Shown one piece after another: positions 36,346-48,195 of a stretch of 64,000 nt of DNA. The notes under the pieces are model-generated. The model saw nothing but the letters and a program-made list of their open reading frames with translations, did not search any database and was not told the origin of the DNA. Numbering within the stretch: the stretch's first letter is position 1; each line of letters begins with the position of its first letter. The stretch is from assembly GCA_965202805.1 (NCBI GenBank), contig OZ241869.1, positions 1,216,001 through 1,280,000 on the forward strand, written 5' to 3'. The DNA comes from Longimicrobiales bacterium (lineage in GTDB: Bacteria; Gemmatimonadota; Gemmatimonadetes; Longimicrobiales; Gaopeijiaceae). A program made the translations under genes and the position numbers.

Positions 36346-38793
36346 ATGACATCGAACACCTCCCTCGCACCGCCAGCCCTGGCATGCGCGCTCCTCCTGG
36401 CGGCTTTGGGCTGCTCCCGCGATCTGGGTCCGCTCGAGCCGGCGCCGTTTCCGACGAGCGGGGTTGTTTTCGAGGATGATTTCACCGGCGGCGTGCAGTT
36501 CCAGGCGTTCTCCACGTCCAAGGTCGACGCGCTCGCCATCGACCGTGTGGAGCGCTACCGGGGCGTGACCTCGCTCAAGTTCACGGTGCCCGGGCCGGGA
36601 GATCCCTCCGGCGGGTACTCAGGGGGCGCGTTCGTCTCCGCGATTCCCCGTGACCTGACCGGCTTCAACGCGCTCACCTTCCGGGCCAGGGCGAGCACCA
36701 GCGCCATCCTCAACTCCGTCGGATTCGGCAACGACAACACCGGCACCTCGCGATTCGTGGCGGATGTCGGCGGTCTTCCGCTCTCGACGACCTGGACGAA
36801 GTACGTCATCCCGATTCCGCTCGCTTCCAGACTGGACCGGGAGCGCGGCCTCTTCTTCCTCGCGGACGCGCCCGAGCATCAGGTAGGCTACGAGCTCTGG
36901 CTCGACGACATCCAGTTCGAGAGCCTGGGAACGATCATCAATTCACGCCCGGAGATCGCAACCCGGACGGTCAATGGAGAAGTGGGCGGCACACTCGACG
37001 TGACGGGCACGCAGGTCACCTTCGACGTGAACGGCAGGGACGTGACCGTGAACGCCATGCCCGGCTACTTCACGTTCCGGTCCTCGGACGAGAGCGTTGC
37101 CGCCGTCAACCAGGAGGGAGCCGTCGTCCTGGTCGGGGCGGGCACGGCCACGATCACGGCGAGCCTCGGCGGAACCGCCGCGCACGGCACGGTCACCGTA
37201 AACGTCGCGGCGCCGCCCACGACGGGCCCGCCGACGCCGGACTTCCCCGCGGACAACGTCATCTCGCTCTTCAGCGACGCCTACGACGACGTGCCCGTGG
37301 ACACCTGGTCGGCCGACTGGGACCAGGCGGACGTGCAGGATGTCGTGATCGACGGCAATACGCTGAAGCAGTACTCCAACCTGGTGTTCGCCGGCGTCGA
37401 GTTCACCTCGCAGCCGATCGACGCATCGGCCACGACCCACATGCACCTGGATCTCTGGACCTCCGATCCCTCGGCGTTCCGGATCAAGCTGGTGGACTTC
37501 GGCGCGGACGGCGCCTTCGGCGGCGGCGACGACAGCGAACACGAGATCACGCTCAACGAGGGTTCCGTGCCGTCCATCGGCGTCGGAGCCTGGAACGTCC
37601 TGGATATCCCGCTGGCCGACTTTGCGGGACTGTCATCCACGGGTCATCTCGCGCAGCTGATCATCTCCGGCGCCAGCCCGACCGTGTACCTGGACAACAT
37701 CCTGTTCTACAGTTCGGAGCCGATGGTGCCTGTGACCCCGGCGGCGCCCGCGGAGCCTGCGCCCACCCCGACGGCCGCGGCCGGCGATGTCGTCTCGCTC
37801 TTCAGCGATGCGTACGACGACGTTGCCGTGGACACCTGGTCCGCGGAGTGGGACCAGGCCGATGTCGAGGATGTCCTGATCGCCGGCAATGCGGCCAAGA
37901 AGTACACCAACCTCGGCTTCGCCGGCATCGAGTTCACCTCGCAGACCGTGGACGCCTCGGGCATGAGCCACTTCCACATGGACATCTGGACGCCGGATTC
38001 GTCGATGGATCCCGCCGCCTTCCGGGTGAAGCTGGTGGACTTCGGAGCCGACGGGGCCTGGGGAGGGGGGGACGACGTCGAACATGAGCTCGCGTTCACG
38101 GAAGCCTCCGACCCCGCGCTGGCCACGGGGAGCTGGGTCGGGCTGGATGTCCCGCTCCCGGCCTTCGAGGGACTCACAACGCGCGGGCATCTCGCCCAGA
38201 TGATCATCTCCGGCGATCCGAACACGGTGTACGTGGACAACGTCTACTTCTACGCCGTTTCGATGGAGCCTCCCACGGAGCCGGCCGAGCCCGCGCCGAC
38301 GCCGTCGCCGGCCGCCGAGAACGTCATCTCGTTCTTCAGCAACGCCTACGAGAACGTCACGGTGGACACCTGGTCGGCCGATTGGGACCAGGCGGACGTG
38401 GAAGACGTTCAGATCGGCGGGGACGACGTGAAGAAGTACACGAACCTCGCCTTCGCGGGCATCGAGTTCACCTCGGCCACGGTCGATGCCTCGGGCATGA
38501 CCCACTTCCACATGGATGTCTGGACACCGGATCCCACGGCGGACCCGGCCGCGTTCCGGATCAAGCTCGTGGACTTCGGGGCCGACGGGGCGTGGGGAGG
38601 CGGTGACGACGTCGAGCACGAAATCGCGTTCACCCAGGCGTCCGATCCCGCGCTGACCACCGGGAGCTGGGTCGCCATCGAGGTGCCCCTTTCCGCATTC
38701 GAAGGGCTCACGACCCGGGGGCATCTGGCCCAGATGATCATCTCCGGCGACCCGAACACGGTCTTCGTCGACAACGTGTACCTGCACAACTAG
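36346..38793 (+). CDS. Multi-domain glycan-binding lipoprotein (beta-sandwich, Ig-like domain, 3 tandem ~178-aa repeats)
   Basis: Lipobox LAALG-C; CBM-like N-terminal domain (RDLTGFNALTF..W.KYVIP..LWLDDIQF); Big_2-like SSDESVAAV..GAGTATITAS; three repeats VISLFSDAY...DTWSADW...HMD.WT...FRIKLVDFGADG...DNV.F. Confidence 0.8.
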   Translation: MTSNTSLAPPALACALLLAALGCSRDLGPLEPAPFPTSGVVFEDDFTGGVQFQAFSTSKVDALAIDRVERYRGVTSLKFTVPGPGDPSGGYSGGAFVSAIPRDLTGFNALTFRARASTSAILNSVGFGNDNTGTSRFVADVGGLPLSTTWTKYVIPIPLASRLDRERGLFFLADAPEHQVGYELWLDDIQFESLGTIINSRPEIATRTVNGEVGGTLDVTGTQVTFDVNGRDVTVNAMPGYFTFRSSDESVAAVNQEGAVVLVGAGTATITASLGGTAAHGTVTVNVAAPPTTGPPTPDFPADNVISLFSDAYDDVPVDTWSADWDQADVQDVVIDGNTLKQYSNLVFAGVEFTSQPIDASATTHMHLDLWTSDPSAFRIKLVDFGADGAFGGGDDSEHEITLNEGSVPSIGVGAWNVLDIPLADFAGLSSTGHLAQLIISGASPTVYLDNILFYSSEPMVPVTPAAPAEPAPTPTAAAGDVVSLFSDAYDDVAVDTWSAEWDQADVEDVLIAGNAAKKYTNLGFAGIEFTSQTVDASGMSHFHMDIWTPDSSMDPAAFRVKLVDFGADGAWGGGDDVEHELAFTEASDPALATGSWVGLDVPLPAFEGLTTRGHLAQMIISGDPNTVYVDNVYFYAVSMEPPTEPAEPAPTPSPAAENVISFFSNAYENVTVDTWSADWDQADVEDVQIGGDDVKKYTNLAFAGIEFTSATVDASGMTHFHMDVWTPDPTADPAAFRIKLVDFGADGAWGGGDDVEHEIAFTQASDPALTTGSWVAIEVPLSAFEGLTTRGHLAQMIISGDPNTVFVDNVYLHN
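37225..38790 (+). repeat. Three intragenic tandem repeats (period ~531-534 nt)
   Basis: Equivalent (I/V)S(L/F)FS codons at 37261, 37792 and 38326; Pro/Ala-rich linkers between copies. Confidence 0.9.
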
Positions 38794-38821: not shown

Positions 38822-40057
38822 ATGTCCAGCGCGATGACCGCTCCGCAGGCGGCGGGCTCCAGAGCACGCGGGCCCTCGCTCTCGAACCTGATGCTCAAGC
38901 TCATCTGGCGGCGGAAGGAGATCTCGCGGGCCGACATCGCCCGGGTGATGGACCTGTCCAGATCCACCGTCTCAAGGATCGTCTCCGACCTTCAGTCCAC
39001 CGACCTCGTCGCCGATGTCGGCGTCGGGCCCAGCCGAGGCGGACGCCGTCCCGTTCTGGTGGCCTTCCAGGACGGCGCGCGCGTGATTCTCGGGGTCGAT
39101 GTCGGCGCCAGCCATGTCTCGGTGGCGCTGACCGACCTGAGGGGACGCGTGCTGGCCTGGCGGGAGCGAGGACATCCGGTGCGCTCCGACCCCGCCGGCA
39201 CCCTGCGGCTGATCGGCGAACTGTGCGACGCCTGCCTGGCTGCCCGCGACCGGCCTTTCTCCGACCTGGTCGGGATCGGTGTCGCCGTGCCCAGCCCGGT
39301 CGATCCCCGCAATCCGGGCCGCATGTTCGACCGGATCTTCCCGGCATGGCGCGGACACAGCGTCGTGGACCATCTGCAGACGCGCTACGACACCGCCGTG
39401 GTCGTGGACAACGACGCCAACCTGGGAGCCGTGGCCGAGCACCGGTGGGGATGGGGCGTCGGCGTCGACGATCTCACCTACCTGAAGGTGTCCACCGGGA
39501 TCGGTGCGGGACACATCATCGGCGGCAGACTCAACCGCGGCTCTGCCGGGATGGCCGGGGAGATCGGACACCTGGCCACCGCATCGGACGGTCCACCCTG
39601 CGTCTGCGGCAACCGGGGATGCCTGGCCACGTTCGCGGGAACCCTCGCCGTCCTGAACCGCGTGGAAGCCCTGCTCCCGGAGCATGCCGACAGCCTGCTC
39701 GCCGACCGCCGGCTCAGCATCGCCGCCTTCGAGGAGGCGGCTCTGGCCTCGGACCGGCTGGCACTGCGGGTCGTCCACGAAACCGCCCAACACCTGGGAA
39801 CCGCCATCGCGGGCGTCCTCAACCTGATGAACCCGGCCACGGTGATCCTCGGAGGCAGCCTCGCGCGTCTGGGCGACCTTCTGCTGGAACCGCTCCGGGA
39901 CGCGGTGTCGCGCAGAACGTTTGCGGGCTCCCTCGCCTCCGCAACCATCCGCACGAGCGCCCTGGGCCCGCAGTCCATCGCGCTCGGCGCGGCCACCCAT
40001 ATCCTCGACAGCGCCCTGGCCGATACCCGCCTCTTCCTGCGAGCAGCCGCCAAATGA
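38822..40057 (+). CDS. ROK family transcriptional repressor (XylR/NagC-like)
   Basis: N-terminal HTH ISRADIAR..DLSRSTVSRIV..L, GGRRP; ROK domain DNDANLGA, GEIGH, CVCGNRGCL. Confidence 0.94.
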   Translation: MSSAMTAPQAAGSRARGPSLSNLMLKLIWRRKEISRADIARVMDLSRSTVSRIVSDLQSTDLVADVGVGPSRGGRRPVLVAFQDGARVILGVDVGASHVSVALTDLRGRVLAWRERGHPVRSDPAGTLRLIGELCDACLAARDRPFSDLVGIGVAVPSPVDPRNPGRMFDRIFPAWRGHSVVDHLQTRYDTAVVVDNDANLGAVAEHRWGWGVGVDDLTYLKVSTGIGAGHIIGGRLNRGSAGMAGEIGHLATASDGPPCVCGNRGCLATFAGTLAVLNRVEALLPEHADSLLADRRLSIAAFEEAALASDRLALRVVHETAQHLGTAIAGVLNLMNPATVILGGSLARLGDLLLEPLRDAVSRRTFAGSLASATIRTSALGPQSIALGAATHILDSALADTRLFLRAAAK

Positions 40058-40899
40058 ACGCCTTACGCAAGCATCTGCGAGAATGCCGGGTCCGGTTTCG
40101 GATTCCGGTCCGTCCCGTCCTGCTGGTCCCCGCGCTGGCTCTCATCGCGGCGTGCGAAGCGGACGAGGGCCCGATCTGGACGCTGGTCTGGGAGGACGAG
40201 TTCGAAGGAGCCGCCGGCCAGCTCCCCGACCCGCAACGCTGGACCTTCGACATCGGGGGTCACGGCTGGGGCAACGCGCAACTCGAGTACAACACGGATC
40301 GCGCGGAAAACGTGTCCCTGGACGGAAACGGCAACCTGGCGATCGTCGCGCGACGGGAGTCCTACCAGGGCAACGGCTACACCTCCGGCCGCATCAAGAC
40401 CCAGGGACGTTTCGAACAGGCCTATGGCCGCTTCGAGGCCCGCATCCGCCTGCCGGTGGGCGCCGGCATCTGGCCCGCGTTCTGGATGCTTGGCCACGAC
40501 ATCGACGCCGTCGGCTGGCCCGAGTGCGGCGAGATCGACATCATGGAATACCGGGGCCAGGAGCCCGGGGTCATCCACGGGAGCCTCCACGGGCCGGGCC
40601 ATTCGGGCGGCCAGGCGGTGACCCGGCGCCATGCCCTCCCCGACGGGCGCTTCGACACCGACTTCCATGTGTTCGGGATCGAGTGGGACAGCGAGTCGAT
40701 CTCCTGGTTCGTGGACGGCGAACGATACAACGTGGTCCGCAGTGGAGACGTCTCCGGGCGCTGGGCGTACGACCACCCCTTCTTCCTCCTGCTCAACGTC
40801 GCCGTGGGCGGGAACTTCATCGGTCCGCCGAACGACGCCACCGTCTTCCCGCAGACGATGCTGGTGGACTGGGTTCGCGTCTATGAGCGAGCCGGATGA
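40054..40899 (+). CDS. GH16 endo-beta-1,3-glucanase (laminarinase-type) lipoprotein
   Basis: LVWEDEF, GWGNAQLEY, YTSGRI, GIWPAFWMLG, WP.CGEIDIME catalytic motif, LNVAVGG; lipobox LIAA-C; ATGA overlap with the ROK gene. Confidence 0.93.
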   Translation: MNALRKHLRECRVRFRIPVRPVLLVPALALIAACEADEGPIWTLVWEDEFEGAAGQLPDPQRWTFDIGGHGWGNAQLEYNTDRAENVSLDGNGNLAIVARRESYQGNGYTSGRIKTQGRFEQAYGRFEARIRLPVGAGIWPAFWMLGHDIDAVGWPECGEIDIMEYRGQEPGVIHGSLHGPGHSGGQAVTRRHALPDGRFDTDFHVFGIEWDSESISWFVDGERYNVVRSGDVSGRWAYDHPFFLLLNVAVGGNFIGPPNDATVFPQTMLVDWVRVYERAG

Positions 40900-42956
40900 T
40901 GAGCCAGGAGACCGCTCCCCGCGACCGCATCTCCTTTCCCCACAAGATCGCCTACGGGATCGGCGGCTTCGTAAACAACCTGCTGGCGCAGGGCATCGGC
41001 AACATGATGATCGTGCTGACGCTGGCGCTGGGGATGGACTTCCGCGCGGTCGGCCTGCTCGGCAGCCTGCCGCGCGCCTTCGACGCCGTCACCGATCCCC
41101 TGGTCGGGTTCATCTCCGACAGGACCAGATCCCGATGGGGCCGGCGCAGGCCGTTCCTCTTCGCCGGGGCGATCGCGTCGGGGATCGTCTTCGTCCTGCT
41201 CTGGCAGATGCCGGCGCCGACCCAGTTCCGGCTCAAGCTGGTCGACTACGGCGCGGACGGGGTCTACAGCGGCGGCGAGACGGGCGAGCCGGTGGGGCTG
41301 CTGGCATCCGTAGGGGAATCGCTCAGGGGCATCGTCAGCGTCGAACTGATCGACGATGTCGAGGACGAAGTCACCGTCCTGCCCCCAACGCTGGTCACCG
41401 GCGCCTGGGTGAGCATCGACATACCGCTTGCCGACTTCGACGAGCTCGCGACCCGCGAGCATCTTTCGCAGATCCTGATCTCGGGGGACCTGACCGAGGT
41501 TCATGTCGACAACGTCTACCTCTACCGCAGCGCCGACACTGCCCGGGCGGGGCCCGCGGGAGAGGACGTGGAGGGAGTGGCCGCGCCGAACACAGCCGCG
41601 CCGGCGCCAACGCCGGCTGCGGAAGACGTCATCTCGTTCTTCAGCGGCGCCTACGACGATGTCCCGGTCCAGTTCTGGTCCACGGACTGGGACCAGGCGG
41701 ACGTCGCGGACACCGAGGCCGGCGGCGACGCCGTCAAGCACTACACGAACATGCGCTTCGCCGCGATCGACTTCGGCGAGACCCCCGTCGACGCCAGCGA
41801 GATGACGCACGTCCACATGGACGTCTGGACCCCGGAGCCCACCGGCGAGGGCCGGAGCCAGAGCTACTACTTCTGGTACTTCCTGATCGGATCGCTGGTC
41901 TTCTTCCTGGCCTACACCGTCTTCGCGACACCCTGGGTGGCCCTCGGATACGAGCTGACGCCCGACTACAACGAACGCACGCGGCTGATGGGGGTGCAGA
42001 ACTTCGTCTCCAACATCGCCTTCGTCATCGGGCCCTGGTTCCTCGTGATCATGACCAATCCGGCGTGGTTCAGGAACCAGATGGCCGGGGCCAGGTTCCT
42101 CGCGCTCGCCATCTGCATCACGACCATCGTGCTGGGCGTGCTTCCGGCGATCTTCCTGCGGGAGCGGGTGCCGACGAGAGATGCCGCAACGGACGGCAGC
42201 AGCTTCGGGGAGAGCGTGATGCAGTTCCTCAAGGGGCTGCTGCAGACGGTCAGGACGGGTCCCTTCCTTCTGCTCTGCGTCGCGACGTTCCTGATCTTCA
42301 ACAGCTTCATCATGATCTCCCAGTTCCAGTTCTGGGTGTTCGCCTACTACATCTCCGGCGGGAACATCGGCGACGGAGCGGCCCTGGCCGGGCTGGTCGG
42401 GACACTGGGCATCGTCGCGGGCTTCGCGGTGATCGTGTTGGTCACCTGGCTGGGCACCAGAATCGGGAAGAAAAACGCGTTCTTCGTGTCGACGGGCATC
42501 TCGATGTTCGGCTATGCGCTGAAGTGGTTCTGCTATTCGCCCGAATATCCGATGCTGGCGCTGCTGCCCGCCCCGTTCCTGGCCTTTGGTCTGGGCGGAC
42601 TCTTCACGCTCATGGGATCCATGATCGCGGATGTGGTTGATCTGGACGAAATCAGCACCGGCGAGCGGCGCGAGGGGATGTTCGGGTCGGTCTACTGGTG
42701 GGTCGTCAAGGTGGGCCAGAGCCTCGCGATACTCGCGGGAGGATTCCTGCTCTATTCGACGGGGCTCGACCCGGCGCTGGGAGCGAACCAGCCCGAAGGG
42801 ACGATCTTCTGGCTGCGTTTCTACGACGCCTTCGTGCCGCTCGCCGCATCGGCCATCGCTGTGTACGCCGTCTACAGGTACCCGATCACCGAAGAGAGCG
42901 CGCTCAGGGTGCGGGACGAGCTGGAGCGCAGGCGGGGAGCGAGGGCGACGGCCTGA
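40896..42956 (+). CDS. GPH/MelB-type MFS sugar permease with a ~200-aa inserted soluble domain
   Basis: KIAYGIG, FDAVTDPLVGFISDRTRSRWGRRRPF, ALGYELTPDYNERTRL, MIADVVDLDE..TGERREGMF, RYPIT; hydrophilic insert at about aa 111-313. Confidence 0.92.
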   Translation: MMSQETAPRDRISFPHKIAYGIGGFVNNLLAQGIGNMMIVLTLALGMDFRAVGLLGSLPRAFDAVTDPLVGFISDRTRSRWGRRRPFLFAGAIASGIVFVLLWQMPAPTQFRLKLVDYGADGVYSGGETGEPVGLLASVGESLRGIVSVELIDDVEDEVTVLPPTLVTGAWVSIDIPLADFDELATREHLSQILISGDLTEVHVDNVYLYRSADTARAGPAGEDVEGVAAPNTAAPAPTPAAEDVISFFSGAYDDVPVQFWSTDWDQADVADTEAGGDAVKHYTNMRFAAIDFGETPVDASEMTHVHMDVWTPEPTGEGRSQSYYFWYFLIGSLVFFLAYTVFATPWVALGYELTPDYNERTRLMGVQNFVSNIAFVIGPWFLVIMTNPAWFRNQMAGARFLALAICITTIVLGVLPAIFLRERVPTRDAATDGSSFGESVMQFLKGLLQTVRTGPFLLLCVATFLIFNSFIMISQFQFWVFAYYISGGNIGDGAALAGLVGTLGIVAGFAVIVLVTWLGTRIGKKNAFFVSTGISMFGYALKWFCYSPEYPMLALLPAPFLAFGLGGLFTLMGSMIADVVDLDEISTGERREGMFGSVYWWVVKVGQSLAILAGGFLLYSTGLDPALGANQPEGTIFWLRFYDAFVPLAASAIAVYAVYRYPITEESALRVRDELERRRGARATA

Positions 42957-43034: not shown

Positions 43035-44963
<1,929 letters not shown>

Positions 44964-45012
44964 GGATCGGCGACGGGGACCTGGGAGTTCACGCAGCCGG
45001 GCAGGCTCGTTC

Positions 45013-48000
45013 CTACAACCCGATGTGCAGATAGGTGCGGACTTCCCACTCACTTCCCTGCCGGCTGCCGCCAGCCATGGGGTTGCACACCTGTTTGCCC
45101 GCCTGGTCGGACATCATGGCCGGACAGAACCTGGGAGAATACTCGTCCAGGCTGCGCCACGTCGCGCGCACGCCGAAGCGGGTCTGGGGAAGATCGAACC
45201 AGCCGGGCACGCCGAGCACGTAGGAAACATCCCCCATGACCTGCATCGGGAAGGTGTGGTTGTAGTCCCGGTGGTAGTCGTAGGGGCCCCAGTCGTTGAA
45301 GCGAAGGAAGCTCTGGATCTTGACCGGTCCCGTGATCATGCGGATGTCGCCTCCCAGCCGTTTCACAAGCCGCTGGTCGCTCCCGTTGGGCTCCGCCGTC
45401 CCGGTATACACGTTGGCCACGAAGCCCCCGCCCCCCGGACGCTTCGAAACCAGGCGCGCCCGCAACTCCCAGAGATCTCTGGCCGCCGGCGCGCTGGGGA
45501 AGGCGAAGGCAGTGCGCCCGTCGGGCAGAATGCCGATGCCGGCGTCCTGGGTCGTGGCGAAACTCCGGTACACGAAACCCACCGACGCGGCGAACGGGGC
45601 GTCCTCGCGGATATCGCTGTCCCAGTTGTACATCCAGGTGGCGGGAGTGGGATCGTAGGTGATGAGCAGCTCTGCCGCGGTGCTCTCCCGGTTCCCGCCG
45701 CGGACCGCGAACGGGTCGTCGAGGATGTTGCGGGGACGGGCGGGCGCCGGGAGCCCGGCGGGGATCGGTCCCACCAGGGGCTTCTGCCACATGAAGTTGG
45801 GCGCCACCTGCCAACTGCCGGAGTTGATGGCCAGACCGGTGAGGAAGCTCCACCGGTTGCCGATGCCCGAGTCCTTCAGGTGCCATCCGGTGAAGGTGAG
45901 CGTCTGCGTGGGGCCGCCATCGGCAACCAGGCCCATGGCCGCTCCCTCGGCGTACCAGTTCCAGCGTCCCCTGGTCACGGTGAGCTTCGCCTTGGCCCCC
46001 AAAGCGTCGGATGCCTGGATCTCGTCCCCCAGCACCCGGCCGTTCTCGGCGATCTGGAAGGCTTCCCCCACCTTCGTGGAGCCCGACCAGATGCCACCCA
46101 GATCGAGCCCGACTCCACCGCTGGAGGCGGCCGCGAGGTGAAGCGTCGCCTTGCGGGTGGGCGGCAGCGGAATCGCGAACGAACTCGCGACCGACTGCTG
46201 CTCCGCCAGGTCCTCCTGGAAGATGCCCGTGACCTGGAAGGGGCCCGTCTGCCGCTGGTACTTGGCGAGCACGGCCGGGTTGGCGCCCCACCACAGCTCG
46301 GGACCGATGGCCACCTTGAGGCCGCTCAGGGCGCGCTTGCCCATGACCTCCATCCCGAGCGGGGCCACACCGTTGTATATGTCGATGTTGGGCCCGTAGT
46401 TGGCCTCGGGATACAGGCCGAAGAAATCGCCTTCGTATCCCCAGTGATAGTGGCCGGTGCGGTAGAAGCCGTCCAGCCGGAACCAGCGGTCGTCCCAGGA
46501 CACGTTGGCCCGATAGACCTTGACGCGCTCCAGATCGTTCAGCGCCAGCGGCTCGCCGTCGGAACTCACCATGCGCGACCGGCCGCGGTTCTCGTAGAAG
46601 ATCTCGTCAATGGGGTTCGACGGCACGTCGCCGAGCACGTTGAACGACAGGGTGGCGAGCATGTTCTGGGTCGGGCGCGCGGTGAGGTCGGCGTAGAAGG
46701 ACTGCTTCTTGTCGAATCCCATGAACCCCGGACGCGCGATGCTTCCCGGGACCGGGTTCGCGGGTGTGCTCAACAGTGAACCGCCCGTGCTGTAGGTTTC
46801 CAGCTCGATGCGAAGGCCGCTCAGGTGCACGCGGTCACGCGCGGACGCCAGCAGCGCGGCGCGGTCGCCCAGCGCCTGCAGTCCCGCGTCGGCCGCCTCG
46901 ATGGAGCCGAAGTGCTCGCGGATCGTATCCAGATCCGTACCGGGCGCATACGGGTCGAGCCGGTAGGCCTCCTGCAATGCGTAGTAGGCCGCCCGCGGGT
47001 ACAGGTCGTAGAGCTTCCGGTGGTCGGCCGGCCCCTTGGCCACGATCCCCCACCACTCCTCGTTCATGTTGTTGTCGCCCGCCACGAAATCCTCGGGATA
47101 GGCGTCGTTGGCCCAGGACGCGTTCGTGTCCTGGATGTCCAGGCGGTCTTCCTGGCCGAACTTCCACCACCCGTCCGTCCACTGGAAGGTCAGGCCGCCG
47201 ATGGAGTTGCCCACGAGGCCCTTCCCCGCCGACTGCTCGTAGATCTCCTGCCACTGGCCCACCAGGTAGCGGGCCTGGGTGACCTGGTCCTCGCGCATGC
47301 GCCGCGCGTCCCACACGTCCGCGCCGAACTCGGTGAACATCACGGGCACGCCGACAACGTCGTGGACGTCCTGGAAGAGCTGGCCGAAGGAGATGCCCCG
47401 GTACACGTTGGTGCCGAAAACGTCCAGATCCGGAATCTCCTCGGCGATGATGTCGAGGTACTGCAGATCGCCGTTGGCCATGGCGATGGGCCGGGACGGA
47501 TCCATCTCCTTGATCCTTCGGGCGACGTCGCCGAAGAGCGAGTACATGTAGCGCGCACGCACGGCGTCCGCCTCGCCCTGGGGCAGATCCTCGGTTTCGG
47601 CTGAACTCCACACGAGGCCGTAGTTGTTCTCGTTGCCCAGCAGCCACATGAGGACGCCCGGGACGTCCTTGAACTCGTCCACCATGGCCTCGATCTCGGT
47701 CATCACGACTTCCCGCGCGCGCGGATCCGAGTAATCGGTGTTGGCATTGAAGACGCCGCCCACCGTTACGCCATAGCGGGCCACCGCGTGGTTGAGGACG
47801 GTGAAGATCCCGTAGCGCTCGTAGATGTGCCGGACCCATTTCGGCTGGATGCCGACGTATGCGCGGATGGCGTTTCCACCCATCGCCTTGAGCACGGTCA
47901 TCTCCCGCTCGAGCGCGGCCTCGATGACCTCGTCGGACTCCGACCAGAAGTTGTAGTTGTAGGTCGTTCCGATGGGGAAATAGTCCCAGTTCACGCCCAG

Positions 48001-48195
48001 CACCATGAAGTCCTCGCCGTCCACCTGCAGCCGCTGGCCGGAATCGTCGGTGACGATGCGGATTTCGGGGAGGTGGGTCTCGTCGGTCTGGCTCGAGGCC
48101 GGAGTGGCGGCGGCCAGCAGGAAAACCGCCGCCATCGGGGCGCCGATCCAGGATCGGACGACGAAGCCGGCTGAGTGGTGATGTATCCGGTTCAT
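45013..48195 (-). CDS. Clan GH-A TIM-barrel glycoside hydrolase (GH2-TIM/GH158-like) fused to a ~600-aa beta-rich C-terminal domain
   Basis: Signal peptide; MGGNAIRAY, WLLGNENNY (acid/base), GTNVYRG, MFTEFGAD (nucleophile), FQWTDGWWK, NEEWWGI; C-terminal amphipathic strands ending WEVRTYLHIGL. Confidence 0.8.
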   Translation of the reverse strand: MNRIHHHSAGFVVRSWIGAPMAAVFLLAAATPASSQTDETHLPEIRIVTDDSGQRLQVDGEDFMVLGVNWDYFPIGTTYNYNFWSESDEVIEAALEREMTVLKAMGGNAIRAYVGIQPKWVRHIYERYGIFTVLNHAVARYGVTVGGVFNANTDYSDPRAREVVMTEIEAMVDEFKDVPGVLMWLLGNENNYGLVWSSAETEDLPQGEADAVRARYMYSLFGDVARRIKEMDPSRPIAMANGDLQYLDIIAEEIPDLDVFGTNVYRGISFGQLFQDVHDVVGVPVMFTEFGADVWDARRMREDQVTQARYLVGQWQEIYEQSAGKGLVGNSIGGLTFQWTDGWWKFGQEDRLDIQDTNASWANDAYPEDFVAGDNNMNEEWWGIVAKGPADHRKLYDLYPRAAYYALQEAYRLDPYAPGTDLDTIREHFGSIEAADAGLQALGDRAALLASARDRVHLSGLRIELETYSTGGSLLSTPANPVPGSIARPGFMGFDKKQSFYADLTARPTQNMLATLSFNVLGDVPSNPIDEIFYENRGRSRMVSSDGEPLALNDLERVKVYRANVSWDDRWFRLDGFYRTGHYHWGYEGDFFGLYPEANYGPNIDIYNGVAPLGMEVMGKRALSGLKVAIGPELWWGANPAVLAKYQRQTGPFQVTGIFQEDLAEQQSVASSFAIPLPPTRKATLHLAAASSGGVGLDLGGIWSGSTKVGEAFQIAENGRVLGDEIQASDALGAKAKLTVTRGRWNWYAEGAAMGLVADGGPTQTLTFTGWHLKDSGIGNRWSFLTGLAINSGSWQVAPNFMWQKPLVGPIPAGLPAPARPRNILDDPFAVRGGNRESTAAELLITYDPTPATWMYNWDSDIREDAPFAASVGFVYRSFATTQDAGIGILPDGRTAFAFPSAPAARDLWELRARLVSKRPGGGGFVANVYTGTAEPNGSDQRLVKRLGGDIRMITGPVKIQSFLRFNDWGPYDYHRDYNHTFPMQVMGDVSYVLGVPGWFDLPQTRFGVRATWRSLDEYSPRFCPAMMSDQAGKQVCNPMAGGSRQGSEWEVRTYLHIGL

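Follow-up and report, generated by a model that had tools for sequence, protein, structure and literature searches.

Sugar permeases of the major facilitator superfamily (MFS) are held to work without accessory binding modules. A permease gene in a marine Longimicrobiales bacterium of the Gemmatimonadota (GenBank assembly GCA_965202805.1, contig OZ241869.1) raises the question of how such a transporter acquired a domain of about 200 amino acids (aa) in one of its loops, and what the domain does there. The gene lies at 40,896 to 42,956 of a stretch of 64,000 nucleotides (contig positions 1,216,001 to 1,280,000, forward strand), hereafter the window, to which all coordinates refer. The gene encodes a permease of the GPH family with a domain derived from a neighbouring lipoprotein, circularly permuted and of carbohydrate-binding module (CBM) type, in a loop that should face the periplasm. 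The architecture is real, of single origin and selectively maintained, and its function is what we infer in the later sections.

A lipoprotein repeat with exchanged halves interrupts the permease

The 686-aa permease matches the Pfam family MFS_2 (PF13347) with 202.3 bits against a cut-off of 27. The match falls into two stretches, and the second (residues 321-666) restarts at profile position 92 of 427. The NCBIfam model TIGR00792 (gph) gave 168.6 bits (E 1.8e-49), under its curated cut-off of 231.35, and the insert splits this match in two as well. The interrupting segment extends from F111 to P313 of the open reading frame, that is, from 41226 to 41834. The parts of the permease and of the lipoprotein, all on the plus strand, are listed below, where TM denotes a transmembrane helix, pLDDT the predicted local distance difference test of a structure model and dN/dS the ratio of nonsynonymous to synonymous substitution.

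40896..42956, plus strand: insert-bearing GPH/MFS_2 permease, 686 aa (Pfam MFS_2, E 1.3e-59, two stretches)
40896..41225, plus strand: permease N-terminus, TM1-TM3 and the cytoplasmic loop 2-3 motif SDRTRSRWGRRRP, with ...LLWQMPAPTQ as last residues (alignment to MelB and MFSD2A, hydropathy)
41226..41525, plus strand: C-half of the insert, F111-Y210, equal to native strands 5-9 (alignment, models, dN/dS 0.18)
41274..41345, plus strand: extra loop within the C-half, residues 127-150, lineage-specific (not in native repeats, pLDDT <50, dN/dS 0.56)
41526..41609, plus strand: Pro/Ala-rich linker R211-P238 from the old C-terminus to the old N-terminus (alignment, model, dN/dS 0.45)
41610..41834, plus strand: N-half of the insert, residues 239-313, equal to native strands 1-4, with the end ...HMDVWTP (alignment, models, dN/dS 0.32)
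41835..42953, plus strand: short connector EPTGEGRSQS, then permease TM4-TM12 (MFS_2 profile 92-427 against residues 321-666, hydropathy)
36346..38793, plus strand: 815-aa lipoprotein with lipobox ...LAALGC, comprising an N-terminal CBM-like region, a Big_2-like Ig domain and three tandem repeats
37243-37725 (R1), 37774-38265 (R2) and 38305-38790 (R3), plus strand: lipoprotein repeats, the donor-type domain

Permease residues 164-318 align unbroken to lipoprotein residues 590-733 with 54% identity (BLASTP, E 1e-43); the lipoprotein segment comprises, in this order, the C-half of repeat 2, the Pro/Ala linker and the N-half of repeat 3. Against the junction of repeats 1 and 2, this permease stretch shows 44% identity (BLASTP, E 4e-32). 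At the start of the insert, FRLKLVDYGADG (permease residues 111-122) corresponds to AFRVKLVDFGADG, with which the C-half of the repeat begins. The linker differs in length among orthologues, and its conserved APAPTP end is part of the domain. The extra loop of the C-half (residues 127-150, about 24 aa) occurs in no native repeat; without it, the insert measures about 180 residues, compared with a repeat period of 177 residues in the lipoprotein. These results bear out the first-pass annotation of the sequence, which had described an insert of about 200 aa after the third hydrophobic helix, a swapped-half match to a lipoprotein with three repeats (all three are complete) and an additional C-half loop of about 20 aa. 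Its further claim that exactly one complete domain is present is supported by the strand mapping and by the predicted assembly of the two halves, both given in the next section.

Since the insert is one repeat period that starts halfway through one repeat and stops halfway through the following one, its old termini are joined by the natural inter-repeat linker. For the same reason, the new termini sit in the former loop between strands 4 and 5.

In some orthologues (P0067, P0075, P0076 and P0086), the central cytoplasmic loop is expanded by a further 20-50 residues rich in Gly, Arg and Ala (columns ~497-552 of alignment A1), and the Pro/Ala linker inside the insert is much longer. With the whole permease as query, the top protein-atlas cluster consisted of 592-aa GPH transporters, mostly from Bacteroidota (score 0.96); these are about 100 residues above the usual length and might contain another kind of extra segment.

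Predicted fold of the insert and of the native repeat

Natural segments were collected in two alignments. A2 (114 rows) combines the insert of the window with 32 orthologous inserts and with 81 segments across repeat junctions of repeat proteins, and A3 (88 rows) contains repeats in native order. The first-pass annotation had proposed structure prediction for the permease and for one lipoprotein repeat; the insert and one native repeat were modelled, and both fold in silico. The AlphaFold2 model of native repeat R3 (pLDDT 96, predicted template modelling score (pTM) 0.91) contains strands at residues 7-11, 29-37, 40-54, 67-73, 84-90, 103-109, 123-128, 141-148 and 153-161. The insert model (pLDDT 85.5, pTM 0.82) contains strands at 7-13, 51-57, 68-73, 86-93, 98-106, 141-145, 163-171, 174-188 and 201-207, which are, in order, native strands 5, 6, 7, 8, 9, 1, 2, 3 and 4. 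The cut lies between native strands 4 and 5, in a loop of ten residues. The sole segment of the insert model with pLDDT <50, model residues 23-46, is the extra loop.

Folded as separate chains, the two halves of the insert were predicted to assemble, with ipSAE interface scores of 0.80, 0.81 and 0.84 against 0.00 for the best control, contact agreement of at least 95% and partner pLDDT of at least 84. The ipSAE mark is reached by 116 of 157 solved complexes and by 2 of 215 mismatched pairs, counts that hold only roughly in this case because the alignment used was built by the authors. The lowest-error contacts between the halves connect strand 9 (98-106) with strands 1 and 4 (141-144 and 201-207), as well as strand 7 (68-73) with strand 4.

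By its model, the native repeat is a CBM-type beta-sandwich. A Foldseek search of the PDB returned 89 chains at E<=1e-3, headed by CBM11 (6r31, 1.9e-6) and followed by CBM8 and CBM30, and VIA-align returned 84 chains with Z>=8, including CBM8 (7t7z, Z 12.7), CBM30 (2c24, 12.2), CBM11 (1v0a, 11.7) and a module of a GH50 agarase (5z6p, 11.1). The laminarin-binding CBM X584 (8qx6) gave Z 11.1 in VIA-align, with a root mean square deviation of 2.5 A over 127 residues; this is the lowest deviation, yet CBM8, CBM30, CBM11 and CBM29 lie within about 1.6 Z units. In these models, the likeness of the repeat to the X584 family is real but not distinctive, and membership is not assigned because CBM8, CBM30 and CBM11 score equal or higher and no sequence link was found. 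A protein-atlas search with the insert gave leads only, all below 0.9 (CBM30, CBM_4_9 and CBM_11), and the lipoprotein has no NCBIfam match.

The permuted insert model itself had 0 Foldseek matches at E<=1e-3 and a best VIA-align Z of 5.0, which we attribute to the rotated connectivity that sequential aligners meet. A new fold was considered for the insert and set aside on the same reading. From its 44-57% identity to the repeats and its identical strands, the insert presumably adopts the same CBM-type sandwich. Taken together, alignment and models identify it as a circular permutant of the lipoprotein repeat that covers one domain, with the three-dimensional equivalence of the two supported indirectly, through strand order and the assembly prediction.

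The insert junctions are genuine

Near-identical DNA is present in at least 17 sequencing runs. Among the 24 runs listed, 20 contain at least part of the stretch; they come from 10 studies, and the run labels, where given, indicate sponge or marine metagenomes. Three DNA runs, belonging to three studies, and one metatranscriptome library have contigs that span both insert junctions. A misassembly chimera at the junctions, which the first-pass annotation had named as an outcome that would speak against it, was not found in these independent contigs, and both misassembly and a recent copy are excluded. That the segment represents an assembly chimera, pseudogene scar or neutral relic is hardly conceivable: the donor gene is repetitive, lies 2 kb away and could mislead an assembler, but the protein identity between insert and donor repeats is no more than 44-57%, so that the insert is no recent copy, the same architecture is found in 32 further loci, complete chromosomes among them, the junctions are bridged independently, and the reading frame is free of stops with dN/dS well under 1.

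Sponge metatranscriptome contigs, ~95% identical to the window, span both junctions (41006-41497 and 41765-42309). They give a hint that the gene of a close relative is expressed; an RNA library alone is no proof of transcription.

Position of the insert relative to the membrane

The N-terminal part of the permease (residues 9-112) aligns to the solved structures of MelB (residues 2-95) and MFSD2A (residues 31-136), through the end of TM3. The Arg-rich motif SDRTRSRWGRRRP of loop 2-3 (the RSRWGRRRP loop) precedes TM3, and R80-P86 are invariant in 14 sequences. The permease also has the motif FDAxTDP with invariant D63 and D67, which we take to be the counterparts of Asp55 and Asp59, the acidic residues of the TM2 cation site of MelB. 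A crude 19-residue hydropathy scan detected TM1 and TM2 as one merged stretch, TM3, and about eight hydrophobic stretches after the insert. MelB has its N-terminus inside the cell; with this topology, the TM3-TM4 loop, where the insert sits, would be periplasmic.

Judging from the homology to MelB and MFSD2A and from its acidic charge (8 K+R against 40 D+E), the insert should face the periplasm. A cytoplasmic insert, in a permease with a topology unlike that of MelB, is very improbable, as the alignment of the N-terminal 100 residues to MelB and MFSD2A extends to where TM3 ends, the Arg-rich loop 2-3 lies before that helix, the insert is strongly acidic, and the donor domain belongs to an exported lipoprotein.

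One insertion, followed by vertical inheritance

The 120 best homologues listed are 63-100% identical to the permease and 553-759 aa long, and 114 of them cover at least 96% of the 686-aa query; those that are named are MFS transporters of Gemmatimonadota or Candidatus Palauibacter. For a comparison of homologues with and without the insert, which the first-pass annotation had also proposed, loci were scanned in one genome per species, giving 80 loci and, with the window, 81. The permease contains one C-half and one N-half in 33 of the 81 loci (window included) and neither in 48, and the 33 form one clade. All 33 insert-bearing loci are from Longimicrobiales/Palauibacter-type Gemmatimonadota, several of them complete chromosomes. 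In the 48 insert-less permeases, the matched region comprises ~475 residues and the core identity is 53-64%; their hosts are Gemmatimonas and other Gemmatimonadota, Gammaproteobacteria, Fibrobacteraceae, Krumholzibacteria, Latescibacteria, Myxococcota and a Bacteroidota metagenome-assembled genome (MAG). The last of these, locus L064, is the one insert-less orthologue that was read at the insertion site: its loop is LLWQLPREQSETFYF, compared with LLWQMPAPTQ, the insert and EPTGEGRSQSYYF in the window, so that a TM3-TM4 loop of ~7 residues in L064 stands against an insertion of ~205 residues.

In a tree of the permease core (480 columns, with the insert columns dropped), the 33 insert-bearers split off with an SH-aLRT support of 100, which amounts to a single change of state. 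The stem between insert-bearing and insert-less permeases measures 0.44 plus 0.17 changes per column. In a tree of the re-ordered inserts together with 88 native repeats, the inserts form one clade (support 100, stem 0.41), and the order within this subtree mirrors the permease tree. The insert clade groups with repeats from Longimicrobiales loci only, on a branch with a support of 85 that is not starred. Of 121 genomes sampled from the order, 20 encode the permease. With the window genome left out, it was found in 15 of 40 genomes of family f1, 0 of 40 of f2 and 4 of 40 of f3. By alignment extent, 14 of the 20 permeases have the insert, all in f1; those without it belong to f1 (2) and f3 (4). 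The window genome has a single copy of the permease, and the domain occurs elsewhere in it only in the lipoprotein.

These patterns indicate that the insertion happened once, in the ancestor of one Longimicrobiales/Palauibacter-type family, and was then inherited vertically. Median pairwise dN/dS among the 33 inserts was 0.18 for the C-half, 0.32 for the N-half, 0.45 for the linker and 0.56 for the extra loop, which indicates purifying selection on the insert. Circular permutants classically arise by duplication, when one period of a tandem repeat is taken out of register. The route appears to be the same in the window permease, where the out-of-register period landed inside another gene. On the sequence evidence, the simplest account of the insert would be a single in-frame capture of one such period.

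Gene context of the permease

The other genes around the permease are as follows, with GH denoting glycoside hydrolase families.

38822..40057, plus strand: ROK-family protein with an N-terminal helix-turn-helix (HTH), a likely regulator (Pfam ROK 2e-53 and MarR/HTH matches)
about 40054..40899, plus strand: GH16 glucanase with the lipoprotein-type signal ...ALALIAAC (Pfam Glyco_hydro_16, 7.3e-25)
43035..45053, minus strand: GH3 beta-glucosidase-type enzyme without visible signal peptide (Pfam GH3 N and C domains)
45013..48195, minus strand: secreted protein of 1060 aa (weak GH2-type TIM-barrel match in the first ~300 residues, E 7.8e-10)

The stop and start codons of ROK and the likely GH16 start (40054-40057), and those of GH16 and the permease (40896-40899), overlap as ATGA; the two overlaps suggest one operon with translational coupling. 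The gene for the repeat protein is present in 32 of the 33 insert-bearing loci (the exception is a 4-kb contig) and in 22 of the 48 insert-less loci, usually about 2 kb upstream. GH16 is found in all 33 insert-bearing loci, ROK in 29 and GH3 in 22-23. The gene row of repeat protein, ROK, GH16, permease, GH3 and 1060-aa protein is also present in insert-less Gemmatimonadota, which implies that the donor and acceptor genes were already neighbours before the insertion. The 1060-aa gene adjoins GH3 in 22 of the 33 insert-bearing and 23 of the 48 insert-less loci and is a core member of the beta-glucan locus; about 600 C-terminal residues of its product have no family match. No signal peptide is visible in any of the six GH3 N-termini examined, so that this enzyme is presumably cytoplasmic and the oligosaccharides would be imported and then cleaved inside the cell. 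Together, the gene content points to a locus that serves the import of beta-glucan oligosaccharides.

In L064 (1-3940, a Bacteroidota MAG contig), GH16 and an insert-less permease are followed 53 nt downstream by a gene whose product has three or more repeats. Here, acceptor and donor genes lie just as close together in another arrangement. A second GH3 with a Fn3-like C-terminal domain (about 740-810 aa) is present in 15 of the 48 insert-less and 0 of the 33 insert-bearing loci, between the first GH3 and the 1060-aa gene (for example, L046 13313-15673 and L035 13345-15768, both on the minus strand). The window genome has no close orthologue of it, with a best identity of 32% aside from the GH3 of the locus itself (38% identity). 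The idea that the insert compensates for the loss of a periplasmic second GH3 was dropped, as the N-termini of the second GH3 have no visible signal peptide.

The repeat family itself, to which P0243 and P0244 belong, comprises 2064 representative proteins at E<=1e-3. Some of them (2165-2435 aa) contain up to 20 matched stretches, some carry sorting domains of the type IX secretion system (T9SS), and P0317 is a fusion to GH16. Nine proteins were checked with Pfam, and two of them, P0338 (699 aa) and the fragment P0343, belong to the MFS; seven of the nine are from the best 150 of the 2064 matches, and more distant MFS cases are possible.

Comparison with known transporters and glycan-binding proteins

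The window permease resembles the GPH symporters (MelB, TC 2.A.2; Pfam MFS_2) in its membrane core, the loop 2-3 motif, a probable number of about 12 hydrophobic helices and the context of a glycoside-utilisation operon, and differs from them by a 205-aa domain within the TM3-TM4 loop. Domains in outward-facing MFS loops have precedents of another kind. The mammalian MFS transporters PepT1 and PepT2 reportedly have a domain in an extracellular loop, and this domain binds trypsin. Similarly, a CBM on a transporter is reported for the O-antigen ABC (ATP-binding cassette) exporter WzmWzt, in which Wzt carries the module on the nucleotide-binding subunit. Wzt is thus alike as a transporter with a glycan-binding module and differs as an ABC exporter, compared with the secondary importer described here. 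In the consulted part of a study on Acinetobacter, the periplasmic domain of AmpG1 binds the lytic transglycosylase Slt (PMC13507758). PepT1/2 and AmpG1 share with the window permease a folded domain in an outward-facing MFS loop, for which substrate concentration or enzyme coupling has been proposed; their domains have another loop position and another fold and bind proteins, whereas the window insert has a CBM-type fold of local origin.

The donor lipoprotein has a counterpart in the laminarin locus of Christiangramia forsetii, where, according to the consulted sections of the preprint, tandem repeats of a surface lipoprotein bind laminarin (bioRxiv 10.1101/2023.09.07.556657). This surface glycan-binding protein (CBMxx / X584, 8qx6) is likewise described there as a lipoprotein with tandem beta-sandwich repeats and N-terminal Ig-like modules in a GH16 locus. 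The window repeat has no sequence or profile match to 8qx6, and the permease copy differs further in being permuted and located inside a transporter.

Within the consulted part of a 2026 review (PMC13543919), glycoside MFS transporters are 400-550 aa long, the sole exception being LacS with a C-terminal IIA-like domain. Our literature search, whose coverage lay outside subscription journals, returned no glycoside MFS transporter with a CBM or any periplasmic domain, and the Palauibacterales paper (PMC10469786) has 0 occurrences of laminarin, GH16, MFS, glucan or permease. The first-pass annotation had stated that no MFS transporter of this architecture was described. This holds for the glycoside MFS transporters covered by the search. 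However, other loop domains of MFS transporters (PepT1/2, AmpG1) and a CBM-bearing ABC transporter (Wzt) are on record, so that the kind is not wholly new.

Possible functions of the insert

The earlier interpretation of the insert stands in respect of the circular permutation, the position after TM3, the single beta-sandwich in silico, the single origin and the retention of the domain. Its remaining element, glycan capture by the insert, is plausible and fits the modelled CBM fold, the locus and the retained conserved residues. Specifically, 77 columns reach a conservation of at least 85% across the 81 native junction segments; in 51 of these, the residue is unchanged in at least 85% of the inserts. 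The retained columns include W171, D175, D205, N206, Y253, D266, D272, K281, Y283 and W311, and most of the conserved aromatic and acidic positions are among the 51.

Based on these features, we consider that the periplasmic domain probably still binds beta-glucan oligosaccharides and keeps them beside the permease entrance. In this mechanism, a GPH-family sugar:cation symporter of a beta-glucan utilisation operon would carry the permuted CBM-type domain in its TM3-TM4 loop, on top of the N-terminal six-helix bundle, in the periplasm and beside the outward-facing entrance. The domain would still bind the beta-1,3-glucan oligosaccharides released by the GH16 lipoprotein and hold them at the entrance, raising the local substrate concentration and lowering the apparent Km of import, and the imported oligosaccharides would be cleaved in the cytoplasm by the signal-less GH3. 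The 24-residue extra loop may contact the membrane domain. The more far-reaching view, that of an MFS permease with its own tethered periplasmic CBM feeding the outward-open cavity and built in one step, in which the circular permutation itself would have supplied termini suited to a loop between two helices, is put forward tentatively.

Several results weigh against glycan binding by the insert. The fold match indicates a CBM-type sandwich, not a ligand. The repeat belongs to no Pfam family (0 of 88 repeats with a meaningful match). Sequence searches of the PDB to E 10, with the lipoprotein (phmmer) and with the 88-repeat profile (hmmsearch), returned only chance-level rows and thus no sequence or profile link to any solved CBM, 8qx6 included. 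Moreover, 26 of the 77 family-conserved columns are changed in the inserts, including part of the VDTWSAxWD stretch, in which D259 and T260 are replaced and W261 and W265 are kept in 76% and 70% of the inserts, respectively. If this stretch is the binding cleft, specificity or binding may be changed or lost in part of the clade.

Alternatively, the insert could be a docking platform for a protein partner, such as the lipoprotein GH16, the repeat-bearing lipoprotein or a further enzyme of the periplasm, and thereby couple cleavage and import. In favour of this are the protein-binding loop domains of AmpG1 and PepT1/2 as precedents in the MFS, the ATGA overlap that couples translation of GH16 and the permease, and the divergence of 26 of the 77 conserved columns together with the gain of the 24-aa loop. 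However, the core conserved aromatic and acidic residues of a family of glycan-binding type have been kept, and the extra loop is the least constrained part of the insert (dN/dS 0.56) and is predicted to be disordered. We regard docking as less likely than glycan capture, yet as a serious alternative.

A role without any external ligand, as a lid or gate on the outward-open state or as an aid to stability or membrane insertion, appears still more doubtful. The long stem of the permease core (0.44 plus 0.17) would allow the core to have co-adapted to such a part, and the extra loop is specific to inserts; the long stem may, however, merely reflect deep divergence, and a whole 180-aa CBM-type fold with conserved polar and aromatic residues and dN/dS of 0.18-0.32 exceeds what a lid needs.

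Implications

If glycan capture by the insert is true, bacteria in dilute marine or host-associated settings would have another route to better oligosaccharide capture, and the permease would be a proton- or sodium-driven counterpart of binding-protein-dependent importers. A natural model would also become available for the design of transporters to which specificity domains are tethered. Whatever the function, the donor, the insert-less acceptor and the product can all still be recognised in the genomes of relatives, which makes the locus an unusually clean natural case of circular permutation from a tandem repeat combined with domain insertion into a loop of a membrane protein. The case also highlights an extensive family of repeats, characteristic of beta-glucan loci, for which Pfam has no model.

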